Shown: positions 16,444-62,272, numbered from the stretch's first letter. The stretch: 64,000 nt of DNA from Bacillales bacterium UBA743 (GCA_002297365.1 DBKT01000013.1:1601-65600), one strand, 5' to 3'. The notes: generated by a model from the sequence alone, not told the origin. Program-made: numbers and translations.

Positions 16444-16843
16444 TTGGTGGAGTCGAGGGGAATTGAACCCCTGTCCGAAGAATCTCCCACAAGGACCTCT
16501 ACAGTTTAGGTCCTATCATGATTTAACTAACTGGTACGATAAGGCCAAGTCCAATTAGCGAGGCTAAGAGGGTTTTCGTCGCCTTTCCCTAGCCAAGGAT
16601 TGGCGCTTATCACCTTATTTAGCGCCCTGACCGTTAGTAAGGTGCGAAACTAACGGAGGACGTGCTCCTCCTAGACGATGCTAGGAAACCCGTAGGTTAC
16701 TGATTAAGCGGCAGCATACGAAACGCGTTGAGCGCGGTTCGCATAGATATAACTGTTGTCAGTTATTGTTTTTCGATGTTAAAGCTCATCACGCTACTGC
16801 AGTCCAGGCAAGATCGGTTCCCCGTCAAAACCAGAACGACCCC
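16444..16843 (-). ncRNA. ssrA: tmRNA (ssrA)
   Basis: The minus-strand 5' end reads GGGGTCGTTCTGGTTTTGACGGGG. The 3' tRNA-like end reads …GGGGTTCAATTCCCCTCGACTCCACCA. An internal ORF resumes at GCG and ends …TATGCTGCCGCTTAA. The predicted tag, approximately ANRAQRVSYAAA, is a low-confidence call. Confidence 0.85.
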
Positions 16844-32547: not shown

Positions 32548-33837
32548 ATGCCTTTTGAATACAGAAAACGTTTAGCAGAGAACATATTGAATGAAAAATT
32601 AAATTCTTCCGGATGTGTTTTAGTCACCGGTCCGAAATTCTGTGGAAAGACTACACTTTGTCAAAGATTTGCCAAATCAAGCATTTCTTTAAAAAACGGA
32701 AATACGATTGCTTTAGCAAATTCCGATCCAAAAGGAATTTTACAAGGAGAATATCCTCGTCTTATCGACGAATGGCAGAAAGCCCCGGAACTATGGAATG
32801 AAATAAAAGCCGACTTAGATGAAGAGTATCAGTTTGGCAAATACATCATTACCGGAAGCACTACTCCCATTGATCCGTCTAAAATTCAACACTCTGGGGC
32901 TGGACGCATTTCTACAATGAACTTGAAGCCGTTCTCTCTTTATGAATCTGGAGAATCGTCCGGATTGATCTCTTTATCTGAATTGTTTCAAGCAAAAGAT
33001 GCAAGGGAAGACCTTAACTACGTATTAGACAACTCAATTGGCTTAAAAGATATCGCTTATATGCTTTGTAGAGGAGGCTGGCCAATCTCTCTTATGGCAA
33101 AGAGGGAATATGCCATAGCCACCACGGAAAACTACTATGAAGGACTTTTTAGAATAGAAAAAGAAAGTGATGATTTTGCTCTTTTTCTTAAGAACAAGGA
33201 CGTTTCGCTTCTTGTTCTCATTTTGAAGTCTTTTGCAAGAAACGTCTCCACTCAAGCAAAAAGATCCAGCATGAGAAAAGATATATTAGAGTCCAGCATC
33301 CGCGAAACGTTGGATGACGAGACCTTCTCTTCCTATGAAAGGACTCTAAAAGATTTGTTCATTATCTATGATATGCCGGCTTGGGATTTGAATCTTAGAT
33401 CGACCATCGCCATAAGAAGCACACCAACACATCACTTTGTCGACACTTCGATGGCTACATGTGCTTTAGGGATTGAGCCGTCTGATTTAATCAATGATCT
33501 CCACTCCTTTGGCTTTTTCTTTGAAGATTTGGCAGTCAGGGATCTTTCTATATATGCGGATTCTCTTCAAGCAAAATTAAAACATTATCGCGATAGCGCA
33601 GGTCGAGAAGTAGACGCCATTGTAGAACTAAGAAACGGGAACTATGCCGCGATTGAAATCAAAATCTATAGCGATAAAAACATAAAAGACGCATTCGCTT
33701 CTTTAAATAAATTTGAGAAAGCCTTAAAACAAGATGGGTTAAAGCTCCCTCAATTCAAGATGGTTCTCACTAGCCATGGCCCTTGTTACCGTAAAGATGG
33801 AATATATGTCGTACCGATCACAATGCTAAAAGATTAG
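32548..33837 (+). CDS. AAA_14/DUF4143-type ATP-binding protein
   Basis: A Walker A (GPKFCGKTT) is near the N-terminus in an approximately 430-aa protein. This is the architecture typical of the PF13173/PF13635 ATPase family. Confidence 0.7.
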   Translation: MPFEYRKRLAENILNEKLNSSGCVLVTGPKFCGKTTLCQRFAKSSISLKNGNTIALANSDPKGILQGEYPRLIDEWQKAPELWNEIKADLDEEYQFGKYIITGSTTPIDPSKIQHSGAGRISTMNLKPFSLYESGESSGLISLSELFQAKDAREDLNYVLDNSIGLKDIAYMLCRGGWPISLMAKREYAIATTENYYEGLFRIEKESDDFALFLKNKDVSLLVLILKSFARNVSTQAKRSSMRKDILESSIRETLDDETFSSYERTLKDLFIIYDMPAWDLNLRSTIAIRSTPTHHFVDTSMATCALGIEPSDLINDLHSFGFFFEDLAVRDLSIYADSLQAKLKHYRDSAGREVDAIVELRNGNYAAIEIKIYSDKNIKDAFASLNKFEKALKQDGLKLPQFKMVLTSHGPCYRKDGIYVVPITMLKD

Positions 33838-33851
33838 TAACGTTTCACCAT

Positions 33852-35135
33852 CTATAAACAAAACAACGCATAAAGTGGAATAGACTTAATGCCATTTTCG
33901 TAACCAAAATTTTTAGAAGACAACCGAATAGAATATTTTGGTGAGTATTTTTCAACGTAAACTCTTAAACTTTTAGCGCGAACATTGTCCGCAGATTTAA
34001 CTTCAAGAGGAATGGCAGAGTCATCTTTTCTTAGAACAAAATCCACCTCTGCCTTGCCATTAGATTCCCGATAGTTTAAGCGATAGCCACATGATACAAG
34101 TTGTTCTGCAACATAGTTTCCTGCCAAAAGGCCTCTTGCCTTATCGGATATTGCACTTTCGACAAGAATATCTTGAGGCATAATTCCAGATTTGAAGCAA
34201 AGAAGTCCAACGTCAGAATAATAAATCTTGAATGCATCTAGCTGTTCATACAAAGAAAGCGGCAATTTCCCTTCACTCACTTTAACGTTTTCCAAGACCG
34301 CATTTGCGGCCTTAAGCCATTGAAGGGACAGTTCATAGTCTTTCGCACGAGCGTTGCTTTTAATTGAGGCGTAAATGAACTTCGTGTTCTCTTTTGCCAA
34401 TTGAGATGAAAGAGTATTGAAAATGGCTATGCTTTTGATGGTTTCATTTGGCGAAGCATACTTGGCCATATCAGCAATATAAGAATCGGAAATATTGGCC
34501 TGCATCGAACGTACGGAATCAAAATCATTTGTGTCAAGAAAGTTTTCAATGACCGCTGGATAACCACCAATAACCAAATATTTTCCATAAAGATCCAATG
34601 CGAGTTGATGATAAACCTCGGGGAGAGGAGAAAAAGCAGCGTAGGATTCGCGTATTTTTTCTATTAATGCATCATTATTGTTCGCCAATAAGAACTCTTC
34701 AAAAGAAAGAGGAAACATCGTTAACATATTTACCTTTCCGACAGGGAAAGAGAAGTTTCCTCTGTCAATACTGAGACCTAAAAGGTTCCCAGCAGCGACG
34801 ATATGATATTCATTCGCTTCTTCGGCAAAATATTTCAAAGATGTCAAAGCTCTTTCGGATGCTTGTATCTCGTCAAAAATAATCAAAGTCTTGCCCGGCA
34901 ATATCGTTTGTTTTGTATAGGCTGAAATCTCTTGGATGATACGCCTAGGATTTAAATCGGGAGAAAAGATTTTAGTAAGTGTTCCTGCGTCCCCTTCAAA
35001 ATGTAAATAAACAACGTTTTCATAATACGTCTTGCCAAAATCTAATAACGTATATGTTTTACCGACTTGCCTTGCGCCCTTTAATAAAAGCGGTTTACGC
35101 TGTTGCGATTTTTTCCATTCTAGAAGCGAATTCAT
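33852..35135 (-). CDS. AAA_14/DUF4143-type ATP-binding protein. It is a paralog of the previous gene.
   Basis: Walker A (GARQVGKTY), Walker B (IFDEIQ) and the same length class. Confidence 0.7.
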   Translation of the reverse strand: MNSLLEWKKSQQRKPLLLKGARQVGKTYTLLDFGKTYYENVVYLHFEGDAGTLTKIFSPDLNPRRIIQEISAYTKQTILPGKTLIIFDEIQASERALTSLKYFAEEANEYHIVAAGNLLGLSIDRGNFSFPVGKVNMLTMFPLSFEEFLLANNNDALIEKIRESYAAFSPLPEVYHQLALDLYGKYLVIGGYPAVIENFLDTNDFDSVRSMQANISDSYIADMAKYASPNETIKSIAIFNTLSSQLAKENTKFIYASIKSNARAKDYELSLQWLKAANAVLENVKVSEGKLPLSLYEQLDAFKIYYSDVGLLCFKSGIMPQDILVESAISDKARGLLAGNYVAEQLVSCGYRLNYRESNGKAEVDFVLRKDDSAIPLEVKSADNVRAKSLRVYVEKYSPKYSIRLSSKNFGYENGIKSIPLYALFCL

Positions 35136-35151
35136 TATTAAACGTCTTATT

Positions 35152-35700
35152 GGACTGCTAATCTTTAAGTAGACAGTGCATTACAATTTTGCATGCAGAT
35201 TGCAATGCTCTGTAGACAAGGAGGTTACAAAAATGAAACTAACGAAAGAAGAAAGGCTCCCGGTCGGCAAGATGCTGCACGAAGGGAGCCTTTCCTACAA
35301 GGACTGCATGGAAAAATACGGCGTTTCCAGATCCGCATGCTCCAACTGGGTGAGGGAATACAGGCAAATCAACGGAATCCCCCCAAAAGCCCCCATGGGG
35401 GCTCGCGCCGGCATGGGCCAAAGCGATTACGGATCGATGACAAAGAGCCAGCTCCTCGTTGAGCTGATGCGCAAGGACATCGAGGTCGCGAGACTAAAAA
35501 AAGGTATGCGGTGAAAGGGGGTGGTCGAAAAAAGGAATTCGTTTCTATAAGCGGCTCGAGTACCAAGTGATAATGGAGCTTTCCGGAAAATGGCCGGTCG
35601 TAGCCCTCTGCAGGGTGGACATAGCAAAAGTATACAAATCAATCAAACATTTCTTATCCGCCATGGTCATCTTATAAATCGGCATTGAAACTCCGCGGTC
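35152..35700 (+). mobile_element. Truncated IS3-family element, comprising the left inverted repeat, orfA and only about 50 codons of orfB
   Basis: The IRL reads TGGACTGCTAATCTTTAAGTAGAC. OrfA is a HTH protein (MKLTKEERLP…) with a GGAGG RBS. A frame-shifted orfB start (…WPVVALCRV…) stops after about 55 codons. The segment is GC-rich relative to its surroundings. Confidence 0.7.
35233..35514 (+). CDS. IS3-family transposase OrfA (HTH)
   Basis: See the mobile-element entry above. Confidence 0.65.
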   Translation: MKLTKEERLPVGKMLHEGSLSYKDCMEKYGVSRSACSNWVREYRQINGIPPKAPMGARAGMGQSDYGSMTKSQLLVELMRKDIEVARLKKGMR

Positions 35701-35916
35701 TAAGTAATATCCACCACCTTTGCCGTGTTTCGTTTCAATGTTAAAAGAATAACGTTCGTCTGTTGAAACTTTATCCAATTCCCTTTTATATTCAAGAATA
35801 TTCCTTTCTTTAGTGCCCAATTCTTCAGCTAACTCTTTTATGGAATGAACCCTTCCGTCATTCAAACACCGTAGCATTTCAATGCATTTTGCTGCTTTTC
35901 CTTTTTCTTTTTCCAT
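35545..35916 (-). pseudogene. HTH-WYL-type regulator truncated by the IS3 insertion. Only the N-terminal HTH survives.
   Basis: The N-terminus MEKEKGKAAKCIEMLRCLNDG…ELAEELGTKERNILEYKREL is homologous to the two full-length WYL regulators in this island. The C-terminal approximately 20 residues are read from the IS remnant on the opposite strand. Confidence 0.5.
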
Positions 35917-35968
35917 AATAACACACTCCAAAATATACAAAATCAATAGGCTTTGGGTTAACTTGCTG

Positions 35969-41142: not shown

Positions 41143-41640
41143 TTACTTTTTGATGGTCAAAGTTCGACGAAGCATATGAGCCTTGATTTTGAGTTTCTCT
41201 TTTTGCTTTGTATAGAAACGCCCGTATTCGTCCACATATAGACCAGTGACAACGCTCGTATTAAGAAAATCCCAGACAATTAAGTGAACGTTCTTGCCGA
41301 ACTTAACTTTCCCATCGAAAATAATCTTTGTTGGAACGAGGCCGTTGTCTGAGTATTCAGGAACGGGGCAAAACTTTCTTAATTTTTCTACAGCATATTC
41401 TAAAGTTCCAGTTACTTGGTTTCCAGAAAAGGTAATGCGTTGAAAATCAGAATCGTAGAAATTTCCTTGATTGTCCTTATATGCGCCTTCAAGAACAATA
41501 GAAGAACCGTCTTTTTTAACATGTTCAAACCTGCAATAAGACAAAGATGGTCTTATTTGATTTACGCCTGTAAAAGGGAGGCTTATCGTTGTATATGTTA
41601 ATTCGACAAAATTATTTTTTTCATTTAAATGTAGTTTCAT
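41143..41640 (-). CDS. Hypothetical protein (about 165 aa)
   Basis: The ORF overlaps the LemA stop. Confidence 0.45.
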   Translation of the reverse strand: MKLHLNEKNNFVELTYTTISLPFTGVNQIRPSLSYCRFEHVKKDGSSIVLEGAYKDNQGNFYDSDFQRITFSGNQVTGTLEYAVEKLRKFCPVPEYSDNGLVPTKIIFDGKVKFGKNVHLIVWDFLNTSVVTGLYVDEYGRFYTKQKEKLKIKAHMLRRTLTIKK

Positions 41641-41641
41641 A

Positions 41642-42148
41642 CTAAATATCGTTATCATCGAATCCGGCTAGTTTTGTACTAGAATCTAGATTTTGGGAAT
41701 CTATATATTTAGCGTTTTTGAAACGAAAGATCGTTTTTAAAATAACGTTCGGAAATTCATTGATGTATTGATTGTAATCATTCACCAACTTATTAAGTTC
41801 TAATTGAGAATTTTGGTAAGCATCTGCTAAAGAGAGAACGAGATTTCCTGCTAAGGTAAAATGCGAAGATATCTTTCCTGTCGCCCCTCCAATCAACCTT
41901 CCTCCTTGATAAGAAGAATTAGCCACCTTATAAGCGTTCCCTTGCGAAGAATCCGCATCTATGGTTGCAGTTCCTGTCTTTCTCAAAACTTGAAGGTATT
42001 TTGCTTTTGCAATACGCACATTGCTTTGGGCATCACGAATATTTTCTCTTTTGCGGATCACCATATTTCGAAAGCCAATAATCCATCCGATTAACCAGCA
42101 AAAAGCTATAAAACCTAATGCCAATAACATCCATCCCCACCATCTCAT
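41642..42148 (-). CDS. LemA-family protein
   Basis: An N-terminal TM, then …FRNMVIRKRENIRDAQSNVRIAKAKY…, and a C-terminal FPNVILKTIFRFKNAKYI. This matches the LemA pattern. Confidence 0.65.
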   Translation of the reverse strand: MRWWGWMLLALGFIAFCWLIGWIIGFRNMVIRKRENIRDAQSNVRIAKAKYLQVLRKTGTATIDADSSQGNAYKVANSSYQGGRLIGGATGKISSHFTLAGNLVLSLADAYQNSQLELNKLVNDYNQYINEFPNVILKTIFRFKNAKYIDSQNLDSSTKLAGFDDNDI

Positions 42149-43720: not shown

Positions 43721-44509
43721 TTAATAAATGACTGTACTCATGCAGACAACGGATGCTCTGTTTTTAACATTTCCAGACGTTAAGACAGAAGCGTTCGTGT
43801 AGTTTCCTTCCAAAACAACCTCGCCTGCCGCTTCAATTTGCAGAGTATCTAATGTGCAATTCGCTTTTACGGCTCCGTTCGTTTTTACGGATAAAACTTG
43901 AATAGAATTCAAGGCAATCTCAAAGAGGAAACTCCGTTTTTTAACTTTTTTTAGAGCATCCGCTTGAAAACTAAGATATAGTTCACCATTAGAATCTTTT
44001 TGAAAAATCAACGCATCATTTGGCAAATCATTGCCATTTCCATATATGGTGAAACAGCTCTTGTTTCTCGAAGCTGGATCCGCTCCACTATTTACGATCG
44101 TGATGTCTCCTGAAGGAATATCCAGGGACATGATTCTTGCATCCCCCAAAAAAATCTCCCTTCTCCTATTTAAGAGAATAACATCGGAGGAGAAATGAAT
44201 GGGGGCCTCTTTTGGCATACGGGCAGCAATGCTAGAGTTCTTTTTCACAAAAGGGGACAAGGCCTGAAATACGTCTTCTTTCGGATAAAACATGTTCTTG
44301 TTTGCTATACGGGTCAGCTCTTTTTCATCCAGAAGGGATGCGGGGTCCTCATCTTTTATCAAAGACGTAAGAACGTCAAGAAAGTGCTTTTGAGAGAGGT
44401 TGCCCCCTATAAAATCCGCCAAGAAGGAACACAGGTAGAGAGGTTGCTTGAATATCTGTTCTTTGTCTTCCCTATTAAGAATGATTTTAACTGCTTCAGC
44501 GTAAGTCAT
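43721..44509 (-). CDS. Hypothetical protein (262 aa) with a beta-rich repetitive C-terminal half
   Basis: The C-terminus has short degenerate repeats (VKTNGAVKAN / VLEGNYTNASVLTSGNVKN). Confidence 0.45.
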   Translation of the reverse strand: MTYAEAVKIILNREDKEQIFKQPLYLCSFLADFIGGNLSQKHFLDVLTSLIKDEDPASLLDEKELTRIANKNMFYPKEDVFQALSPFVKKNSSIAARMPKEAPIHFSSDVILLNRRREIFLGDARIMSLDIPSGDITIVNSGADPASRNKSCFTIYGNGNDLPNDALIFQKDSNGELYLSFQADALKKVKKRSFLFEIALNSIQVLSVKTNGAVKANCTLDTLQIEAAGEVVLEGNYTNASVLTSGNVKNRASVVCMSTVIY

Positions 44510-45344
44510 ATTTTGATTCTCCGATTGAATTTAGCAAAAAAAGAAAAAAGATGGTTATTCCAAAAATTATAATGGGAAGAAAGTAGGCTATAAGACTATA
44601 TGTGATAGATCCTTTTTCAGAAGGGAACGAAGATGCAGACACTGCAAAAGAAACGGATAATGCAGCTGCAACGCCAGTTGAATAAGGACGTAGATGAATA
44701 TTGTGTCGGTCACCCTTGTTTACTAAATGTTGATTCACAAAATAAAGAACAATTAAGATGGTTCCTGTAATTAAAGAGAACCAAAAGATATAAGAATCTT
44801 TTTTAAGAGCCCATCCAATCACGCCTCCCATAGTATTCATCAAAAACAAGATTCCATTGACGATGGCTGCGTGCTTTTTCCTGTGTTTCAAATGATTGAA
44901 ATTACTATATTTGTTCCATTTGTTTTCGATAACGGAGCTGAGGCACTGCACAAAGAAGGCGGCAACCCCTATAGCCAACATCATCCAGCAAGAGAAGAAA
45001 GAAGAAATGAAAAGCGCAATGAAAAACAAACAGACAAAAATAGTTAGAAAATAGGCATCATAGAAAATACTGGACTTGTTTTCATCATATTGAATATAGG
45101 ATGACTTATAACCCTCGACACCATGATTTTGATGAGGAACGTATCGATTAGAACGATTGAAGTTATGGGCGCCTCTAGCATTTTGCTTAGGACATTCCCC
45201 TCTCTTCTTTTTAGAAGTCTGAGCAATTCGTTGATTCGGAGGATTATTATCGCTAGAGGGAAAATGAACTATAAAAGGTGGTAGAGCGCCCTTCCTCCTG
45301 CTTCTTCTATTATTCATTTCGAAAGAATACTTATCTCGATTCAC
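44496..45344 (-). CDS. Hypothetical polytopic membrane protein with a basic N-terminal tail
   Basis: An N-terminal Arg/Lys-rich 80 aa is followed by 5-6 TMs. Confidence 0.45.
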   Translation of the reverse strand: MNRDKYSFEMNNRRSRRKGALPPFIVHFPSSDNNPPNQRIAQTSKKKRGECPKQNARGAHNFNRSNRYVPHQNHGVEGYKSSYIQYDENKSSIFYDAYFLTIFVCLFFIALFISSFFSCWMMLAIGVAAFFVQCLSSVIENKWNKYSNFNHLKHRKKHAAIVNGILFLMNTMGGVIGWALKKDSYIFWFSLITGTILIVLYFVNQHLVNKGDRHNIHLRPYSTGVAAALSVSFAVSASSFPSEKGSITYSLIAYFLPIIIFGITIFFLFLLNSIGESKYDLR

Positions 45345-47141: not shown

Positions 47142-47936
47142 TTAAGAATCATCTTTCCAAAGAAGGCCCAAAGAAACATCGTCTCCGATTCCGATTTCTG
47201 TGCCCAATTTGAATACGAAGTCGACTATTTTTTCTTTTTTGCCCTTTTTTAGACTCTCTAAAATAGGTCTTACGCAAGAGGTGCAAAAATTATCAAAAGT
47301 TCTATACGGGTTTATGAAACCATCCGTAAAAACCATGGCTCCATCCACTTCCGAAATAGAAAGGATTTTAAGCCTTATATGTTGATAAGCGTCCGCTTGG
47401 CACATCGAGTACGTGATGTTTGCCACATTATCTTCCTCCTCCTGGAAGATTCTTTCGGCCGTGCCGTTCTTTAAAAGGAAGCAACCACCATCTCCTAAAG
47501 AAACACAAATCAACCTTTTTCCCAAGATCATTGCCCCATTTAAGGTAGTTCCGTATGCGATTTGAGGATCTTGAAGAATTAAAGTTCTTTCATCTTCATC
47601 TAGAATGGAGAGTTCTTTATCGGTGAAGGGGCGCTTAGAAATGTCTTCTTCGACAAGTCCATTCCATTTGCAGAGAATCGCAAGACGGATACGATTTTCC
47701 GCTCGGCTTTCGTTGAGTAAACGTTCCTCGTTTGTTTTCTTAAATACATATAGGATTGCATCGGAGGCAAATTTTGAGCCCCTGTCACTGCGAATATAGA
47801 GCTTTCCTCCATGGCCATCGCAAGAAGTAACAATGGTTCTTGTTTCATCATGATAAGAATCAGAATAGTCCTGACATATAATTCCGTTTTTTATATGAGA
47901 GTAACCAATAGATGTTGTTGTTAAATATTGAACCAT
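47142..47936 (-). CDS. PP2C-family Ser/Thr protein phosphatase
   Basis: N-terminal …GYSHIKNGIICQDYS…TSCDGHGG and C-terminal …MVFTDGF…. Confidence 0.7.
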   Translation of the reverse strand: MVQYLTTTSIGYSHIKNGIICQDYSDSYHDETRTIVTSCDGHGGKLYIRSDRGSKFASDAILYVFKKTNEERLLNESRAENRIRLAILCKWNGLVEEDISKRPFTDKELSILDEDERTLILQDPQIAYGTTLNGAMILGKRLICVSLGDGGCFLLKNGTAERIFQEEEDNVANITYSMCQADAYQHIRLKILSISEVDGAMVFTDGFINPYRTFDNFCTSCVRPILESLKKGKKEKIVDFVFKLGTEIGIGDDVSLGLLWKDDS

Positions 47937-47939
47937 AAG

Positions 47940-48671
47940 TTACCACTCCCAATCGTCTACTTCAGCAATCGCTTGTTGCACTAAACCCTTTATCTCTTCC
48001 GTTTGAGATGGTTTCTTTCCTTTTACTGATGAAGAACTCGATTTCACCTTGGAGGCTGTTATCACTATGATTTTGATGATTCGATTGAGCAAACGTGCGT
48101 CATAACATTCAATTACATCTCCGTTTCCCGAAACAAAATCGTTCAAGCAACGAATGGTTTTCTCATCATTTGATCCAACCGATATACCATATTTCAAAGC
48201 AATTTTGAACCATGGAAGTTTTTGCAAAGAAGACAATTCTGTTTTGATAGCTCCGTTACTAGGATGGCCATCGCTCATCAAGAGAATGATGGGAGCCAAT
48301 CCGCCAAAATCTGGCATGATTCCGCCTTGAGATTCTTTTTTTAAGATTTCGGAAAGAAACTTATAGGCAAGATGGATATTGCTTCGCCCTGCAGCCTTAA
48401 TGCCTTGAAAGCCAAATTTTTTCACTGGCAAGCATTTCTCGTCTTTATAAAACGAAGCTTGGGTGGAATATGTAATCAAGGTAATATAGAAATCAACATT
48501 GGTGTTTTCATCTTCCATCTTCGAAAGATAATCTTTAATTTCAAAAATGGCATCATTTACTTGTTCAATACGGGTACCCCGCATGCTTGAAGAAGTGTCC
48601 ACAAGCAAAATGATATTAAGTCTTTGCTTGGCGATGTTTCCTACAAAGACGTTACCAGTCTGTGTCGACAT
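47940..48671 (-). CDS. vWA-domain protein (TerY-like)
   Basis: MIDAS motif (LLVDTSSSM) and a …LMSDGHP… segment. The C-terminus is acidic (DDWEW). Confidence 0.7.
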   Translation of the reverse strand: MSTQTGNVFVGNIAKQRLNIILLVDTSSSMRGTRIEQVNDAIFEIKDYLSKMEDENTNVDFYITLITYSTQASFYKDEKCLPVKKFGFQGIKAAGRSNIHLAYKFLSEILKKESQGGIMPDFGGLAPIILLMSDGHPSNGAIKTELSSLQKLPWFKIALKYGISVGSNDEKTIRCLNDFVSGNGDVIECYDARLLNRIIKIIVITASKVKSSSSSVKGKKPSQTEEIKGLVQQAIAEVDDWEW

Positions 48672-49416
48672 CGTTCACTTCCTCTAAGTTATTGGCAATC
48701 TCTTTCTGAGCAACATCGTTATTATTAACAAGTCCGTTGCCATTTGAAGAGTTATCTCCGCTATTTGCATCGTTATAAGTTTTACTAGAGGAATTTGATT
48801 TAACTTTAGAGGCCGTTACCGCAATAACTTTGATTACTTTTCTTAAGGCTTCCGCTGTGTAAACCTTTAAAACGGTTTCACGGTTTCCCGTGAATTTAAC
48901 CAAGACGTCCATAGCTTCGTCGGTGTCAACGCCGATAGCAAGAGCGTATTTCAAGGCAACCTTGAACCAACCTTTTTTCTTTAATTCAGCAAGGCAATCT
49001 TCCCAATCAAAAGAAGTTGGATTTCCATCAGTCATTAAGATGATAATTGGGGCAACTCCGCCAATATCAGGCATTTGTCCACCATTACTCTTTTTCCTAA
49101 GCCATTTAGCTAATTCGTCATATGCAGCAGAAAGATTGGTTGCACCATCTATCGAAAGATCGTTCCATTTAAAATCCTCCACATTCTTTGGCTCAGAATA
49201 AATCCATTTAGCAGTATCGCTAAAAGCTAATGCAGAAATTTTAATCGTAGCATCGCTAGTATCCTCTTGAATCTCAGGCATGATACTCACAACGTCTCTG
49301 ATTGCATTATTGACTGCGCCAATCCTCTCCCCCTCCATGGAAGCGGAATTGTCAATCACAAACAGCAAGTTCAATTCTTGCCTTGCAACTCCATCACCTA
49401 AAACTACTTCAGACAT
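48652..49416 (-). CDS. vWA-domain protein (TerY-like). It is a paralog of the previous gene.
   Basis: MIDAS motif (FVIDNSASM) and …LMTDGNP…. The C-terminus is acidic (DVDTDW). Confidence 0.7.
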   Translation of the reverse strand: MSEVVLGDGVARQELNLLFVIDNSASMEGERIGAVNNAIRDVVSIMPEIQEDTSDATIKISALAFSDTAKWIYSEPKNVEDFKWNDLSIDGATNLSAAYDELAKWLRKKSNGGQMPDIGGVAPIIILMTDGNPTSFDWEDCLAELKKKGWFKVALKYALAIGVDTDEAMDVLVKFTGNRETVLKVYTAEALRKVIKVIAVTASKVKSNSSSKTYNDANSGDNSSNGNGLVNNNDVAQKEIANNLEEVNDVDTDW

Positions 49417-50705
49417 AATATTTCTCCCTTAACATTGTCATCAAATTCGATTTGTAGATTTTGAATCAATGGGATGACGCCATTTTTATCAATTTCTTTC
49501 GCAATTCCATTTTTATCCGTAATCTTGACATTCTTATCTAAAAAAAGACGTATCCCTAATAGCCCAGGGTTCTTCTTATTACGGATTACCCTTCCTTTTA
49601 TGGTTTGATAGTCCGAAGAATATTTGTCTAAATGACAAGCATAGATTTCTTTTCCTACATCTAAGACAATCTTGTTCTTTCCGAGTTCTAATACACACAC
49701 GTTCCCCTTACTTTTATGACAAGCAGGGCATTTTTCATAGGACTGTTTCTCTTCAAATCCGTAAATATATTGATAACCGCATTGTGGGCAAGTGATTAAT
49801 TCATCACGGTATTTTGTTAAAAGCCTTAACCACTCTAACTCAGTTGTTCTTTCGTTTTCCCTGTCTAACAATCCATTCACAAAAGTTCTATGGAAAGCCT
49901 CTTTGATATAAAGTGGCAAATACGCCCAACGCTTTAATACAGAAGTGTGATATCCACGGATCGGCCTGTTTGATTTATCCGTCTTGTGATAAATGAAAAT
50001 CGGATTGCTTCCATACATCTCATATTCGGCTTTTTCATCAATAAAGTCATAATCCTTCAACCTTTCCCCCTCAAAAGGATTCCCAAGGCAAAGGGCCATG
50101 AATAAGATAATCCCTAACGAGAAACGATCGGAATGAATGTCTGGCAAGCATTTCCCAGTCACAATTTCTGGGGCCATATATCTCATTTTTCCTAAGACGC
50201 CAAGATTTTTCTTATCTGCGGTCACGTTATCATTGTCACAAATGAGCAAGTCACCTGTCTTTGGATTCAAAAAGAAACTTCCATCATTTAGATCTTGATA
50301 AGAAAAACCTCTTTCGTGTAGAGCTTTGAAATCGGTGCATAAAGAGATACACCACTTCAGCAATAACGTTTGAGTATCAAAAGGATTCTTGCCATTTAAA
50401 TAGGAGATAAAGGAAACATATTCTTTTGGACGCAAATCCATAATGTATCCACTCGTTCCCTTATCATCTTGATAGATTTCTAATGGCCAAAGGAAATCGT
50501 CTGTAGGCCTTCCTTTTTCAATGTTGTGTTTGAGGTTAAAGAGGAAATCAGTGCTCATCTGGCTCTTATAAATTTTTAAAGCGAATTTATTTTTGCCATC
50601 GGATATCAAATAGACTTCACCCTGTCCCCCTTCTCCAAGTAAATCGACGACTTGATAAGTGTGGCCATCTTTAACGCTTATTTCATCGCCTTTTTTAAAA
50701 CGCAT
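49404..50705 (-). CDS. Ser/Thr protein kinase with a C-terminal zinc ribbon
   Basis: Gly-rich loop (LGEGGQGEVY), the invariant Lys (ALKIY), a catalytic YQDLNDGSFF segment, a DFG-equivalent region, and an APE motif (YMAPE). The C-terminus carries CPQCGY…CPACH. Confidence 0.8.
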   Translation of the reverse strand: MRFKKGDEISVKDGHTYQVVDLLGEGGQGEVYLISDGKNKFALKIYKSQMSTDFLFNLKHNIEKGRPTDDFLWPLEIYQDDKGTSGYIMDLRPKEYVSFISYLNGKNPFDTQTLLLKWCISLCTDFKALHERGFSYQDLNDGSFFLNPKTGDLLICDNDNVTADKKNLGVLGKMRYMAPEIVTGKCLPDIHSDRFSLGIILFMALCLGNPFEGERLKDYDFIDEKAEYEMYGSNPIFIYHKTDKSNRPIRGYHTSVLKRWAYLPLYIKEAFHRTFVNGLLDRENERTTELEWLRLLTKYRDELITCPQCGYQYIYGFEEKQSYEKCPACHKSKGNVCVLELGKNKIVLDVGKEIYACHLDKYSSDYQTIKGRVIRNKKNPGLLGIRLFLDKNVKITDKNGIAKEIDKNGVIPLIQNLQIEFDDNVKGEILCLK

Positions 50706-51160: not shown

Positions 51161-51247
51161 AAAAGTATGAACGAGTATGAAAATATTATAAAAGTATGAA
51201 CGAGTATGAAAGGGTTTTAAAAGTATGAACGAGTATGAAAATAAAAA
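51161..51247 (+). repeat. 3 x 29-bp direct repeats (AAAAGTATGAACGAGTATGAAA + 7 nt). The third copy contains the real start codon of the downstream ATPase.
   Basis: The repeats are exact over 22 nt. Each carries ATGAACGAGTATGAA. The first two ATGs run into a TGA after 10 codons. Confidence 0.85.
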
Positions 51248-52295
51248 GAGCAATCCATTTACGCTATCTTTTGGGAAAAAGCCTTTTGAATATATCGGTA
51301 GGGAAGACAGCAAGAAAGAGCTGATTGGTCAAATTAGTTCCGATCCCGCCACTTCAAATTGTTATGTTATTACTGGCGTGAGAGGCTCAGGAAAAACGGT
51401 AATGCTTACGGCCGTCTCCAAATATTTTGAAACTGATAAAGACTGGATTGTAATCGATCTTAACCCAGAAGATGATTTACGTGAAGGCTTAGCCGCAAAG
51501 CTTTATACCGAAGCAAAAATTAAGCATCTCTTCATGGAAAAAAGTTTTAGCGTCTCCTTTCATGGTGTTTCCTTCAGCCTTTCTGGAAAAAATCCAATAT
51601 ACAACATTGATGATTTGCTAGAAAAAATGTTGGAAGAAATCAAAAGACAAGGGAAGAAGGTGTTGGTCACAATCGATGAAGCAACAAATAACGCCCACAT
51701 GAAGCAATTCGCCTTATCATTTCAATCTTTGATTCGAAAGGAGATTCCGATCGTCTTACTTGTAACGAGTTTGTACGAAAACATTTCCTCATTGGAAAAC
51801 GAGAAAAATATGACATTTCTTATTCGATCTCCAAAAATTTTTCTTTCTCCTCTTAGCATTCAAGCCATCACAAATTCTTATGAATCTAAGCTTGGATTGA
51901 AGTATGAAGAAGCATTAAAATGCGCAAAATTAACAAAAGGTTATGCGTTTGCTTTCCAGTTACTAGGATATCTTATGTTCAATAAAAATAAGAAAGAGGC
52001 GGATAAAGAAGTCTTATCCTCTTACGATCAATATTTAGAAGAATTTGCCTATGCAAAAATATGGTCCACCTTATCTGAGGTCGAAAGAAAGATTGTTATC
52101 TCCCTCCAGACAAATACATCAATTGGTGTATCCACAATATTGGAAAGAACGAACATGAAGAAAGAATATTTCTCCCGTTATAGGGATCGCCTCATCAAAA
52201 AAGGCATATTCCTTTCTCCAGCGAGAGGAAAGCTAATGTTCGCTCTTCCACGTTTTAAGGAATTCATCGATGTTGAGACGGCTTACGATTTCTAA
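51225..52295 (+). CDS. ATP-binding protein of the PF01637 (archaeal-type ATPase) family, with a C-terminal wHTH-like region
   Basis: …FEYIGREDSKKEL…CYVITGVRGSGKTVML… and Walker B (VTIDEA). Confidence 0.6.
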   Translation: MNEYENKKSNPFTLSFGKKPFEYIGREDSKKELIGQISSDPATSNCYVITGVRGSGKTVMLTAVSKYFETDKDWIVIDLNPEDDLREGLAAKLYTEAKIKHLFMEKSFSVSFHGVSFSLSGKNPIYNIDDLLEKMLEEIKRQGKKVLVTIDEATNNAHMKQFALSFQSLIRKEIPIVLLVTSLYENISSLENEKNMTFLIRSPKIFLSPLSIQAITNSYESKLGLKYEEALKCAKLTKGYAFAFQLLGYLMFNKNKKEADKEVLSSYDQYLEEFAYAKIWSTLSEVERKIVISLQTNTSIGVSTILERTNMKKEYFSRYRDRLIKKGIFLSPARGKLMFALPRFKEFIDVETAYDF

Positions 52296-52681: not shown

Positions 52682-54043
52682 TCAACAGGACACATTCTTT
52701 TTTCCTAAAGCAAAAACAAGGTAATATGGCAATGTCAATATTTCATTTTCATACCCAATGTTATAATCACCGAATTTAATCAGCCGAGTAATACCATAAT
52801 GTTCAGGATGCGCCATGACAGTTTTGCTTGATTTGGTATTTCCTGTTTTTGCTTTAGCTTCAATCAACGTAGATACACCATGATATGCAATCACGAAGTC
52901 GATTTGAAGGCCACTTTCTTTTGCGAAATAAAACGTTTGAATGCCCGCCTTATATAAAGAGTCTGCAACCGCCGCTTCAAAAACGTCGCCTTTATTCATC
53001 CCCATTTTTTCCTGCATTAATGAATTCAATGTATCAAAGCCACATAAAGTAATCATCGTCCCGATATCCGAATAATAAAGTTTGAAATCAGAATTGATTT
53101 TTCTTATCGCTAGAGGCAAAGATGGGTTTTCCACATTGTTCACCTTAAAAACAACGTTTGCGTTCAAAAGATAATCAACCGCATCATTTCTCTGATAGCT
53201 GTTCCCGTTTATTCTTGAAAGCACAAACCTCTTATTGTCCGTCAAAGAAAAAGCTAGTGTCAGATCGAAAGCTTTCTGAATTCTAGATATTTCAGTGACT
53301 GTATATAGGGGGTTTCCACCATAATCAACACGTTTAACCGGGTCTCCTTTGACATCAAAAATAAGACTTTCGTTTTTCTTATAAACAACTCCGAAGTTAT
53401 TCGAAGTCAAATATAGACTTACAGTTTCTGGATAGCCTCCAACACACATATATTCTTTGAAAAGAGTTTTCATTTTTTCATGAATCGCGGAAGGAATCGG
53501 CTTTTTTTCTTTGAGATAATTCAATAATTCACTCACTTGTTCTTCTGAATAGCCAGATGCCCAAAGGAATTCTTCAAAATCCATTGTTTTCATGCAAAAA
53601 ACATCTTCAGCACCATTTGGTAAGGGTGTATTTGCGTTTCTTTGCTGCTTTAAATTCAAACCGATATAAGAGCCACTGGCAATAACTTCAAATCTGCCAT
53701 CTTCTTTAAAACTTTTTAACGCTAGGCGAGAGCGCGGGCAATCTTGAATTTCATCCAAAAGGAAAATGGTCTTTCCCGGCTCATAATGGAAATCTTGAAA
53801 TTGAAAGGAAAGTTTTTTGATAATTTCATTTACGTCTAAAGAGCCATCAAAAGCATTCATAGCTTCTGGATTCGTCCAAAAATTAATCGAATTAACATAT
53901 TGAAAATGAGCATTAGCGAACTCTTGAATGCTCCTGGATTTTCCACATTGTCTTATCCCGTAAACCAGGGCAGGCGAATGTCCTTGTGTCTGGTACCAAT
54001 CAAGAAGAACTGTGTCAATTTTCCTTTTTAAATACTTACTCAT
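52682..54043 (-). CDS. AAA_14/DUF4143-type ATP-binding protein (third paralog)
   Basis: Walker A (GIRQCGKSR) and Walker B (FLLDEIQ). Confidence 0.7.
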   Translation of the reverse strand: MSKYLKRKIDTVLLDWYQTQGHSPALVYGIRQCGKSRSIQEFANAHFQYVNSINFWTNPEAMNAFDGSLDVNEIIKKLSFQFQDFHYEPGKTIFLLDEIQDCPRSRLALKSFKEDGRFEVIASGSYIGLNLKQQRNANTPLPNGAEDVFCMKTMDFEEFLWASGYSEEQVSELLNYLKEKKPIPSAIHEKMKTLFKEYMCVGGYPETVSLYLTSNNFGVVYKKNESLIFDVKGDPVKRVDYGGNPLYTVTEISRIQKAFDLTLAFSLTDNKRFVLSRINGNSYQRNDAVDYLLNANVVFKVNNVENPSLPLAIRKINSDFKLYYSDIGTMITLCGFDTLNSLMQEKMGMNKGDVFEAAVADSLYKAGIQTFYFAKESGLQIDFVIAYHGVSTLIEAKAKTGNTKSSKTVMAHPEHYGITRLIKFGDYNIGYENEILTLPYYLVFALGKKNVSC

Positions 54044-59808: not shown

Positions 59809-61992
59809 CTATTTGTCTTCTTTCTTATCTTCCGTTTTCGTTTCCGAAGGTTTTTCTGAAGAAGAATCAGAAGCTGAAGTAGAAGGCTGTTCGATGTCAC
59901 GTTTTGTCGGAGAAGAGACGATTTTATTCAATTTCTCTTTTGTTTCCTCCGAGATAGCATCGGTTTCTTGCACTTCGGCAACGACCTTCGTCGGAAGCTT
60001 GCCAGTCTTCACCAAAGATTCAATTTCTTCAGCCGTGATGGTTTCCTTTTCGAGCAAGGTTTCCGCGATTAAGGTCACATCGGCTTTATGCTCCTCAATG
60101 ATCTTACGTGCTTCTTCGTGACAGGAATCAATGATTTCGCGAACGGCTTTATCAATCTCATAGGCGATTTGCGTAGAGAAGTTCTTGTTCGTATTCGTGT
60201 AATCTCTTCCTAAGAAGACAGAGCCACCCGCTTGTTCGTATTGGATTGGCCCTAAATCGGACATGCCATATTCAGTAACCATGCTACGAGCTAAGCGTGT
60301 TGCTTGTTGAATATCGTTGCTTGCACCGCTAGAAACATCGTCAAAGAAAATCTCTTCAGAGCTTCTTCCGCCAAGAAGGCCCGTAATCATGGCGAGCATT
60401 TCTTTCTTAGTCATTAAGAAACGGTCGTCATCCGGAGTCATCAAGACGTGACCACCCGTATTCCCACGAGGGATGATGGTAATCTTTTGGACCTTTTCGG
60501 CATGAGGGAGAACAAGGCCAATGATGGCGTGTCCGGCTTCATGGAAGGCAACCTGTTTCCTTTCCGTAGGAGACATGCCTTTACTGGATTTTGCGGGTCC
60601 GGCGATCCTTCTATCGATAGCTTCATCAATTTCAGGCATGCCGACGCTTTCTTTATGGAAGCGGACGGCGAGGATAGCGGCTTCATTTAAGATGTTATCG
60701 ATATCTGCACCAGAGAACCCGACAGTGCGTTTTGCCAAGGCATGGAAATCAACAGATGGGTCAATCTTCTTGTTTCTTGCATGGACTTTGAAGATGGCTT
60801 CTCTTCCTTCCGTGTTTGGAAGTCCGACGGTAATGACACGGTCAAAACGCCCTGGACGCAACAACGCTGGATCAAGAACGTCGTCACGGTTTGTAGCGGC
60901 GATAACCAAAATACCGGAGTTATATTCAAAGCCGTCCATCTCAACGAGAAGTTGGTTTAAGGTTTGTTCCCTTTCATCGTTTCCACCGCCTAAGCCAGCT
61001 CCTCTTTGACGGCCGACGGCATCGATTTCATCAATGAAAACGATGCATGGTGCGGTTTGTTTCGCTTTTTTGAACAAATCCCTAACACGTCCTGCGCCAA
61101 CACCGACAAACATCTCAACGAAATCAGAGCCGGAAATGCTATAGAAAGGAACCCCTGCTTCTCCTGCAACAGCTTTTGCAAGCAAGGTCTTACCCGTTCC
61201 TGGCGGGCCGATTAAAAGGGCACCCTTTGGTAAACGTGCACCATATTTGGAATATTTCTTTGGATCTTTGAGGTAGTCAACCATTTCGACCATTTCGGCT
61301 TTCTCTTCATCGCATCCAGCGACATCGGAGAAACGAACCTTTGAAGATTCAACACGAGCGGGAGAGCGATTGAAATCCATCGCTTGGCGATTTGCGCCAC
61401 CCACAGAGGCGTTCAACCTCCAAAGAAGGAATCCGACAAAGAGAAGAATCAAAGCGGATTGGATAATGGTTGGTCCCCATGTGTCCCAGAAAGAAACAGC
61501 ATAGGGGTCAACGGCAACAATATAGGCAAAATCGCCATATGTCTTGTCATTTCCGGAAGCAGACCATAAATCCGTCGCCGTTTTGAAAATGCTGTAATAC
61601 GATGCGTGAACTGGGAAAGTTCCGTCTGTTGAGGCATTCGCATCATAGCTAAATTCTTCATTCCAGTGGTCGTATTGAATAACAACCGTGAAATCACGAC
61701 GATCGGTCTTGGGTTTTTCCTTGTTGTAACGACGACCATTCACCACTACAACCGAATTGTTCTTATTGGTAAAAGAGACGTGAGAAACATAATATTGAGA
61801 CTCTTCAACCGTGGTTTGCTTTGTGTTCACATTGTAACCAACATACGTATCAATATCGCTTTCATTCCACGTTTCAACGGGATTGGAAAATTGTCCAACA
61901 ATAAGCCAAACGATTAAAACGATTAAAACGGTAGTCAGCAAATAAGGCAAAATATACGAGATCTTGCTTTTCTTTGGTTTTTGTTCGTTCAT
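59809..61992 (-). CDS. ftsH: ATP-dependent zinc metalloprotease FtsH (the canonical, membrane-anchored form)
   Basis: Two N-terminal TMs, the AAA module ([13 protein letters not shown]; DEIDAV), HEAGH and a C-terminal acidic tail. The start is placed at MNEQKPKK after a GGAGG RBS. Confidence 0.9.
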
Positions 61993-62272
61993 GTTTTCCT
62001 CCTTTTCATTCAAATAAAAAATTAACGTCTATTAAAAACGCTATCAACAACATACACCCTTTAAGGGTGAAAAGGAAAGGATTTTGCATTAATTTGTTTT
62101 GATGCGAACTATCATCTAGTAATTATGCGCATCTTCCAACATATACAGAGACCTCATAATTGTCGGAACACTCATATGAGCGAACCTTGATTAAATTGTG
62201 AAGCAGAATATTGAAGAATTCGATTTTAAAAAGAAATGCACATCAAGACAAAAAGATAAATTGAAAAGACCG

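Follow-up and report, generated by a model that had tools for sequence, protein, structure and literature searches.

A TerY-P-Type Kinase, vWA and PP2C Gene Cluster on an Accessory Island of Bacillales Bacterium UBA743: A Probable Phosphorylation Switch with a Linked Fifth Gene

Introduction

A stretch of 64,000 nucleotides from Bacillales bacterium UBA743 (GCA_002297365.1, DBKT01000013.1:1601-65600; hereafter "the window", meaning this whole stretch, in whose coordinates all positions are given) carries, at positions 47,142 to 50,705, a minus-strand cluster of genes for a Ser/Thr kinase, two paralogous proteins with a von Willebrand factor A (vWA) domain and a PP2C phosphatase. An earlier reading of the sequence alone (the original prediction) took this cluster for a TerY-P-like phosphorylation triad, which raises the question of whether the locus really is of the TerY-P type and, if so, what such a switch may serve for in its host.

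As described, after Anantharaman, Iyer and Aravind (2012), in PMC11090510, the TerY-P triad consists of a TerY vWA protein with a metal-ion-dependent adhesion site (MIDAS), a PP2C phosphatase and a Ser/Thr kinase fused C-terminally to a zinc ribbon. The original prediction considered this triad "predicted only", which is outdated: according to the summaries in PMC7699616 and PMC11090510, Gao et al. (2020) demonstrated that TerY-P homologues defend bacteria against T7-like phages, and the TerY-P of P. aeruginosa is active against Autographiviridae, most cells surviving the infection (bioRxiv 10.1101/2022.08.12.503731). Our literature search found no mechanistic study of TerY-P.

TerY-P Identity and Co-Conservation

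Every feature of triad membership that we tested was found, namely vWA proteins with MIDAS, PP2C in the same cluster, a zinc-ribbon kinase and co-conserved neighbours, and by sequence comparison the locus very probably belongs to the TerY-P type. In BLASTP, the two vWA proteins match TerY1, TerY2 and TerY3 of the plasmid R478 with E-values from 1e-4 to 1e-11 (about 1e-11 for vWA-1 against TerY1 and TerY2), while the kinase aligns to the R478 ter-cluster kinase with 27% identity (E 2e-23). A tblastn search of 72,556 plasmids with vWA-1 matched 2276 records, overwhelmingly enterobacterial, and in all four matches examined for context (R478, Klebsiella, Phytobacter and Prevotella) the vWA gene adjoins those for PP2C and kinase. 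In R478 (NC_005211.1) and the Klebsiella plasmid the order is vWA, TerD-family, vWA, TerY-C, PP2C, kinase, next to ter genes of the terZ/terW type.

The four open reading frames (ORFs) of the window lie exactly where the original prediction had placed them, overlapping or abutting on the minus strand: the kinase and vWA-1 genes overlap by 13 nt and the vWA-1 and vWA-2 genes by 20 nt, and a gap of 3 nt separates vWA-2 from PP2C. The starts are preceded by purine-rich stretches resembling Shine-Dalgarno sequences, the AGGAGG of the kinase being the clearest. The four genes are real and appear to be translationally coupled. Pfam searches, named by the original prediction as a check, returned Pkinase, VWA (twice) and PP2C_2.

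To this we added a genome scan with one genome per species, which yielded 67 loci, mostly from gut or rumen, in Clostridia, Bacilli (Erysipelotrichaceae, Anaeroplasmataceae and Acholeplasmatales), Spirochaetes and Bacteroidales. Close loci were considered informative (n = 39) if their kinase was complete and at least 55% identical and their sequence extended far enough downstream; the distant loci have kinase identities of 34-42%. The order kinase-vWA-1-vWA-2-PP2C was found in 37 of the 39 close loci and the remaining two have a single vWA gene, so that kinase-vWA-PP2C is kept in 39/39; this recurrence indicates that the gene cluster is not due to chance. The distant informative loci have kinase-vWA-PP2C in 6/6, which brings the gene order to 45/45 loci across phyla, and independent metagenomic contexts agree with this co-conservation. 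Both ways in which the original prediction could fail, vWA proteins without a match to TerY and genes that are not conserved as neighbours, were thus examined, and neither was observed; the triad reading is supported by the R478 matches together with the co-conservation. The locus probably represents a distinct TerY-P-type subfamily, whose centre is in Bacillota of gut and rumen. Its clade is abundant among the gut Firmicutes of humans and animals, with 4924 matches in the kinase search.

Kinase and Phosphatase

When 24 full-length homologues of the kinase are aligned, the β3 lysine K44, the catalytic D138, the DFG-equivalent D157, the APE motif at 178-180 and T162 of the activation loop are invariant, as are the four zinc-ribbon cysteines C306, C309, C326 and C329. 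The threonines T287/T288, located just N-terminal of the ribbon, are invariant too. In the PP2C phosphatase, the metal-binding motifs CQD, DGHG, GD, DG and GDDVS are conserved among 48 orthologues. Both enzymes are predicted to be active from the conservation of their catalytic and metal-binding residues.

The original prediction described a kinase ending in a CPxCG…CPxCH zinc ribbon. The ribbon is indeed present, but the protein does not end there, since a conserved all-beta domain, modelled with confidence, comes after it at residues 335-433. According to the AlphaFold2 (AF2) models, the sole basis of this assignment, the domain is an FHA fold, an 11-stranded beta-sandwich, and Foldseek independently places FHA domains at the top for this region. 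A profile of the zinc ribbon and the FHA-fold domain together (ZnR-FHA) found weak zinc-ribbon matches in the PDB and nothing else. The combination of kinase, modelled FHA fold and PP2C suggests activation and read-out that would depend on phosphothreonine.

vWA Paralogues and Their Tails

The two vWA proteins of the window are 35% identical to each other. The intact DxSxS and the acidic, Trp-containing tails (DVDTDW and DDWEW) attributed to them are all present, DxSxS being kept in both proteins and in essentially all orthologues. In vWA-1 the MIDAS is formed by D22, S24, S26, the Thr in GATN and the Asp in MTDG, while vWA-2 has a conserved Ser where the MIDAS Thr is expected. The Ser-rich linkers of both proteins come after a conserved TASKVKS motif. 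A PDB sequence search with vWA-1 gave weak matches to ITIH vWA domains only.

The acidic-Trp tails are near-invariant inside each paralogue and common in the wider TerY-like family. Orthologues of vWA-1 (63-78% identical) have the D(V/I)EW terminus in 38/40 cases, and orthologues of vWA-2 (46-67% identical) have WEW in 32/40, mostly as DDWEW. To place these tails in the wider family, we took the top 150 representatives of 2202 relatives found by exhaustive search and analysed the 112 proteins of full-length type among them. An acidic and aromatic terminus occurs in 76% of these diverse relatives as compared to 15% of the neighbouring ORFs used as background, and Trp is within the last four residues in 52% versus 0.7%. 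Because the terminal motif is conserved so deeply, it may be a docking motif, which we propose with low confidence. Distant single-vWA systems that have no fifth gene (see below) also bear acidic-Trp tails; the docking partner should therefore be sought among the universal components, that is, the kinase, PP2C or a vWA MIDAS.

The Fifth Gene and Accessory Genes

Five genes are co-inherited as a core: those for the ZnR-FHA kinase, vWA-1, vWA-2, PP2C_2 and a fifth protein with interchangeable C-terminal domains, represented in the window by g262. Although BLAST divides the proteins encoded after PP2C into several families, these have in common an N-terminal domain of about 90 residues with the consensus M.F.EAL...pF..YS.LSDL.G..Y; for the families f5, f7, f78, f37 and f60 these domains align mutually in hhalign at 85-98%. 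The domain is encoded in 38 of 41 close-clade loci, in 32 of them immediately after PP2C. A profile search for it yielded only 16 short proteins, a number restricted by a word-index limit; for three of three stand-alone domain proteins that it retrieved independently, the gene is the one immediately behind PP2C in a cassette of this kind. The domain matches nothing in Pfam or the PDB, and it was not detected in the Prevotella plasmid or in the distant clades. The C-termini are unrelated to each other: multi-pass membrane, toastrack-like (DUF4097-like; hhalign 92% for f7), BspA-type leucine-rich repeat, Cys-rich, or none. A toastrack homology of the C-terminal half of g262 itself is unsupported (hhalign 5.9%).

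In the window, g200, g358 and g282 separate g262 from PP2C. These three genes are specific to a sub-clade and were found in no other position. The cassette-specific g200 always follows PP2C in L013 and L095-L098, and Pfam, PADLOC, PHROG and NCBIfam give no match for it. The g358 family comprises merely 8 clusters in 5.8 billion proteins, occurring directly after PP2C and g200 in the 4/4 contexts checked. Searches of PHROGs and PDB sequences found nothing for g200, g358, g282 or g262. The possibility that g200 and g358 are remote homologues of the families f4, f5 and f7 was rejected by hhalign.

Table 1. Features of the cassette and of the downstream array in the window.
Feature	Position	Strand	Description
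Ser/Thr kinase, 433 aa	49404-50705	-	Hanks-type domain (residues ~1-300), C4 zinc ribbon, C-terminal domain modelled as FHA fold; Pfam Pkinase 3.8e-14
Kinase zinc ribbon	49719-49790	-	Residues 306-329, CPQCG...CPACH; four Cys; weak rubredoxin/zinc-ribbon-like PDB matches by profile
Kinase FHA-fold domain (modelled)	49407-49703	-	Residues 335-433; AF2 models, Foldseek
TerY-like vWA-1, 254 aa	48652-49416	-	Pfam VWA 5.3e-10; complete MIDAS; Ser/Asn-rich linker; C-terminus ...DVDTDW
TerY-like vWA-2, 243 aa	47940-48671	-	Pfam VWA 1.1e-6; DxSxS, Ser for the middle Thr; Ser-rich linker; C-terminus ...DDWEW
PP2C_2 phosphatase, 264 aa	47142-47936	-	Pfam PF13672 4.3e-26
g200, 200 aa	46438-47040	-	Cassette-specific sub-clade accessory gene
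g358, 358 aa	45360-46436	-	Small family; no known domain
g282	44496-45344	-	Predicted membrane protein, ~4 hydrophobic segments (crude hydropathy scan); syntenic in L097
g262, fifth conserved component	43721-44509	-	Novel ~90-aa N-terminal domain and variable C-terminal domain
HTH-WYL-WCX regulator with FtsK-gamma winged helices, 518 aa	42145-43701	-	Pfam
LemA-like protein, 168 aa	41642-42148	-	Weak LemA match, 9e-5; N-terminal hydrophobic/transmembrane segment
g171	41143-41658	-	Syntenic with the array
Soluble FtsH-like AAA+/M41 protease, 441 aa	39714-41039	-	No transmembrane segment; AAA 1.4e-25, Peptidase_M41 2.4e-16
Second WYL/WCX regulator, 326 aa	37399-38379	-	WYL 3.4e-15; 37-50% identical to cassette-flanking WYL genes elsewhere

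Downstream Array and Recurrent Neighbours

The genes downstream of g262 (Table 1) form a co-directional array that is fully syntenic in L097, and farther down this run a GIY-YIG gene accompanies the second WYL regulator. In 26 loci the cassette has a WYL gene farther down the kinase strand. The regulator that follows g262 has an unusual architecture with two C-terminal FtsK-gamma stretches (PF09397, 1.1e-15), conserved in L095 and L097. Orthologues of the LemA-like protein, 51-54% identical, are encoded downstream of the cassette in 6 loci. The FtsH-like protease has an intact Walker A motif (GQPGTGKS) and HEAGH; it is distinct from the housekeeping FtsH of the window (59809-62013), and its AAA domain matches PADLOC IetA models (6e-30). 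Genes for FtsH-like or Vps4-like AAA+ proteins are found near the cassette, on the kinase strand, in 14 loci.

Tandems of one to four proteasome-beta-like genes (PF00227, 8e-7; about 200 residues each) occur in 27/67 loci, always on the kinase strand, mostly directly upstream of the kinase and often behind an FtsH-like or Vps4-like AAA+ gene; examples are L044 (~6.7-10 kb), L072, L058, L022 and L077 (1568-2762). The window itself has no proteasome-like gene. An N-terminal nucleophile would be possible in those proteins that start with MS or MT, but not all of them do, and this difference between copies suggests that the tandem genes may encode a heteromeric ring.

Five loci, L068, L069 and L073 (uncultured Clostridiales/Ruminococcus) and L074 and L075 (Bacteroidales), represent distant single-vWA triads. 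They are accompanied either by upstream coiled-coil-rich proteins and a 1249-aa triple-AAA protein (AAA_lid_6, SpoVK-like) or by a downstream DUF4407 membrane protein, and the two Bacteroidales loci have a second, degenerate vWA of 176 residues.

The Accessory Island

The accessory-island setting proposed for the cluster is confirmed by a GC content below that of the flanks, by a location (~32.5-54 kb) between lysS and an ABC/MarR/dus/ftsH/mfd block, and by the presence of the cassette in another island elsewhere. In other Clostridia (L003, L006 and L007, at ~4.2-7.0 kb) the cassette resides next to smpB in a different element, which also encodes a rolling-circle Rep (REP_ORF2-G2P) and a large serine recombinase; genes for a ThiF-like protein and radical-SAM/SPASM proteins lie farther downstream. 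The taxonomy of the homologues, together with the gene order mfd-ftsH-dus-lysS, points to an uncultured member of the gut Bacillota as the host. The cargo of the window's island includes three DUF4143 ATPases, a STAND-like ATPase, WYL regulators and a GIY-YIG protein. As for the neighbours named by the original prediction, the WYL regulators are there, but no transposase or insertion sequence remnant was seen among the scanned island ORFs of at least 100 aa.

Some further observations concern the island and its surroundings. Paralogous AAA_14/DUF4143 ATPases at 32548-33837 (+), 33852-35135 (-) and 52682-54043 (-) bracket the island, the last one matching the PADLOC candidate PDC-S01 (3e-102). 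Apart from the ORF at 35545-35946 (-), no gene remnant was seen in the island; this ORF, 133 residues long and 45% identical to intact WYL genes of related loci, corresponds to the N-terminal HTH part of a truncated WYL regulator. At 51161-51247 there are three tandem direct repeats of 29 nt (AAAAGTATGAACGAGTATGAAA plus 7 nt). The STAND-like ATPase gene (51225-52295, +) runs divergently from here; its ATG at 51225 is overlapped by the third repeat, and its first five codons are present in every copy. The repeats could be an operator array or a duplicated 5' end. Outside the island, a tmRNA gene at 16445-16843 (-), with the tag peptide DNSYIYANRAQRVSYAAA, was found by ARAGORN and Rfam (136 bits), and Rfam gave nothing beyond it.

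Discussion

We consider it probable that this locus is a TerY-P-type phosphorylation-switch module that is carried on a mobile accessory island and most likely serves, when induced, in defence or in the response to stress. For a defence role in particular the balance is somewhat favourable, since TerY-P homologues are anti-phage systems, the island is low in GC and rich in defence-type genes, and elsewhere the cassette lies in a recombinase-bearing island. In such a switch, vWA-1 and vWA-2 would act as MIDAS-dependent sensors or adaptors, and their acidic-Trp tails would dock on a component that no version of the system lacks (perhaps the ZnR-FHA part of the kinase, PP2C or the MIDAS of the other vWA protein). 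A trigger, for example phage infection, would alter this assembly and activate the kinase, which may then phosphorylate Thr or Ser residues, candidates being its own T162 and T287/T288 and the Ser-rich linkers of the vWA proteins. The FHA-fold domain would read these marks, PP2C would reset the switch, and the output would pass through the variable fifth protein and, in the window, also through the presumably co-transcribed g200, g358 and g282 and the soluble FtsH-like protease, the WYL regulators controlling expression. The specific docking and read-out steps are suggested with low confidence.

Several observations weigh against this reading. Pfam models of FHA and Yop-YscD gave no match at E<=10 with six orthologous fragments of the FHA-like domain, and, judged by eye, the canonical phosphothreonine-binding Arg, Ser and Asn are not evident in the kinase domain, where GK stands in place of GR and neither SxxH nor NG is seen. 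In typical FHA domains these contacts are made by Arg in the β3-4 loop, Ser and His in β4-5 and Asn in β6-7. The docking partner, the phosphorylation sites, the trigger and the effector in the scheme are all putative. Promoter and terminator scans gave counts not above those of shuffled sequence, so that no operon limits can be taken from them, and only distant relatives are present on predicted viral contigs. The recurrent toastrack, LemA-like and membrane partners are typical of envelope-stress systems rather than of phage defence. The validated TerY-P systems come from Proteobacteria and have, according to PMC11090510, a kinase with an OB fold rather than ZnR-FHA. The silence of PADLOC, a check also named by the original prediction, might be added to these points, no known system being recognised at the locus and the vWA and PP2C proteins being unmatched by its HMMs even at E<=10, but we reject it as evidence against TerY-P: it is uninformative because the same library does not recognise the classical TerY and PP2C of R478 either.

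General or envelope stress signalling of the Ter-like or Psp/Lia-like kind, without specificity to phages, is an unlikely alternative function. The vWA proteins would then sense metal or membrane damage, and kinase and PP2C would relay the signal to membrane and toastrack proteins, the LemA-like protein and the soluble FtsH-like protease, which would repair or remodel the envelope. Classical TerY proteins do reside in the tellurite/stress-resistance ter cluster, the C-termini of the fifth protein include multi-pass membrane and toastrack (DUF4097-like) types, and the array of the window encodes the LemA-like transmembrane protein, the membrane protein g282 and the FtsH-like protease. However, no TerD-family (TerD, TerZ, TerA) or TerC match, nor any other ter gene, was found by Pfam in the scanned island ORFs, which thus do not compose a Ter stress cluster; the cassette is patchy, mobile and set among defence-type genes; and the homologous triads are proven to act against phages.

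Phospho-regulated proteolysis seems quite improbable as the primary role. Here the vWA proteins would be substrate adaptors comparable to Rpn10 or the MoxR-associated vWA proteins, their tails would dock on a soluble FtsH-like AAA+ protease or on rings of proteasome-beta-like subunits, and the kinase and PP2C would write and erase a phospho-degron. The AAA+ genes near the cassette, the tandem proteasome-like genes, the triple-AAA ATPase of the distant triads and the intact FtsH-like protease at the end of the window's array all agree with such a role, as do the CoCoNuT extensions, which put AAA+ ATPases between TerY-like vWA genes (PMC11090510). Yet about half of the loci have no protease gene within 10 kb, the window has no proteasome-like gene, docking of the tails on a protease is conjectural, and the association may just mirror the clustering of genes in defence islands.

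A housekeeping pair of the PrkC/PrpC type that lies by coincidence beside unrelated vWA genes is effectively excluded by the co-conservation data, for although Ser/Thr kinase and PP2C pairs are common in Bacillota and NCBIfam gives weak partial matches to PknB/Stk1 and Stp1, these scores are far under the family cut-offs, PASTA domains are absent, the genes overlap with apparent translational coupling, the order with the vWA genes is kept in all 45 informative loci, and the vWA proteins and the kinase match proteins of the R478 ter cluster.

Three features appear unremarked in the literature that we searched: the kinase domain modelled as an FHA fold, the acidic-Trp tails and the fifth linked gene with a variable C-terminus. 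TerY-P is a validated anti-phage system, and these features make the question of its sensing and signalling testable, the fifth gene with its varying C-terminal domain being a candidate output module. Should a role of the tails in docking to the kinase or to AAA+ proteases be borne out, it would extend to the TerY-P modules of CoCoNuT and ter clusters. It is a doubtful suggestion that the real unit is an undescribed five-gene system of gut Bacillota, in which the tails would couple the phospho-switch to AAA+/proteasome-like proteases or to membrane effectors; if true, it would be an immune pathway acting by phosphorylation-gated proteolysis or membrane attack, and TerY-P would gain its first mechanistic handle.

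Comparison with Known Systems

The classical TerY-P/ter cluster of R478 resembles the locus in having a TerY vWA with MIDAS, PP2C and kinase adjoining each other and several vWA paralogues. It differs by the genes for TerD, TerZ, TerW and TerY-C, none of which is present here, by the position of the kinase (last there, first here) and by the TerY tails, which are Pro-rich (PPPPPE..VL) instead of acidic-Trp; in addition, its kinase fails the ZnR-FHA profile and its PP2C is twice as long. The anti-phage TerY-P of Gao et al. (2020) and of P. aeruginosa have the same three-domain make-up and reside in defence-type islands. The tested kinase, however, has a C-terminal OB fold according to PMC11090510, whereas a zinc ribbon and a modelled FHA fold, and no OB fold, were found here, and two vWA genes together with a conserved fifth gene mark the clade described here.

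The CoCoNuT systems of Type II and III-A share with the locus a zinc-ribbon kinase, the recurrence of AAA+ ATPases near the vWA genes and a duplicated vWA with the same MIDAS pattern: in Type III-A, the MIDAS is perfect in the 5' copy of the duplicated TerY-like vWA, whereas the shorter second one lacks the middle Thr (PMC11090510). The duplication of TerY noticed by the original prediction is therefore present but not peculiar to this locus, being an old fixed feature of the clade, and in itself it is not new. The McrB/McrC (CnuB/C), the CnuH helicase and the HEPN CnuE of CoCoNuT were not detected here; Pfam gave no match to McrBC, HEPN or UPF1-like helicases in the ORFs selected from the 28.9-64 kb interval, which comprised most of those with 100 aa or more. 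In turn, PMC11090510 does not mention the FHA fold, the acidic-Trp tails or the fifth-gene domain, the term "FHA" being absent from its text.

In joining kinase and modelled FHA fold in a single polypeptide served by a dedicated PP2C, the locus recalls the FHA-containing checkpoint kinases Rad53, Chk2 and Mek1 and bacterial circuits of Ser/Thr kinase, FHA and PP2C, such as the mycobacterial PknB, FhaA, GarA and PstP. The domain described here differs from these by having no detectable sequence similarity to FHA families, by the canonical phosphothreonine-binding residues not being evident and by its C-terminal location behind the zinc ribbon.

The plasmid pE2-28 of Prevotella sp. E2-28 (NZ_CP091789.1) differs from the window by a single vWA gene, a separate upstream TerY-C protein, a longer PP2C (460 aa), the fifth-gene N-terminal domain not being detected and downstream FGE-like, 3'-5' exonuclease and FtsK-like genes. 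Its kinase is 39% identical over the full length and shares ZnR-FHA (4.5e-16), its vWA protein is 45% identical and has the acidic tail ...YIDDWG, and a PP2C gene follows.

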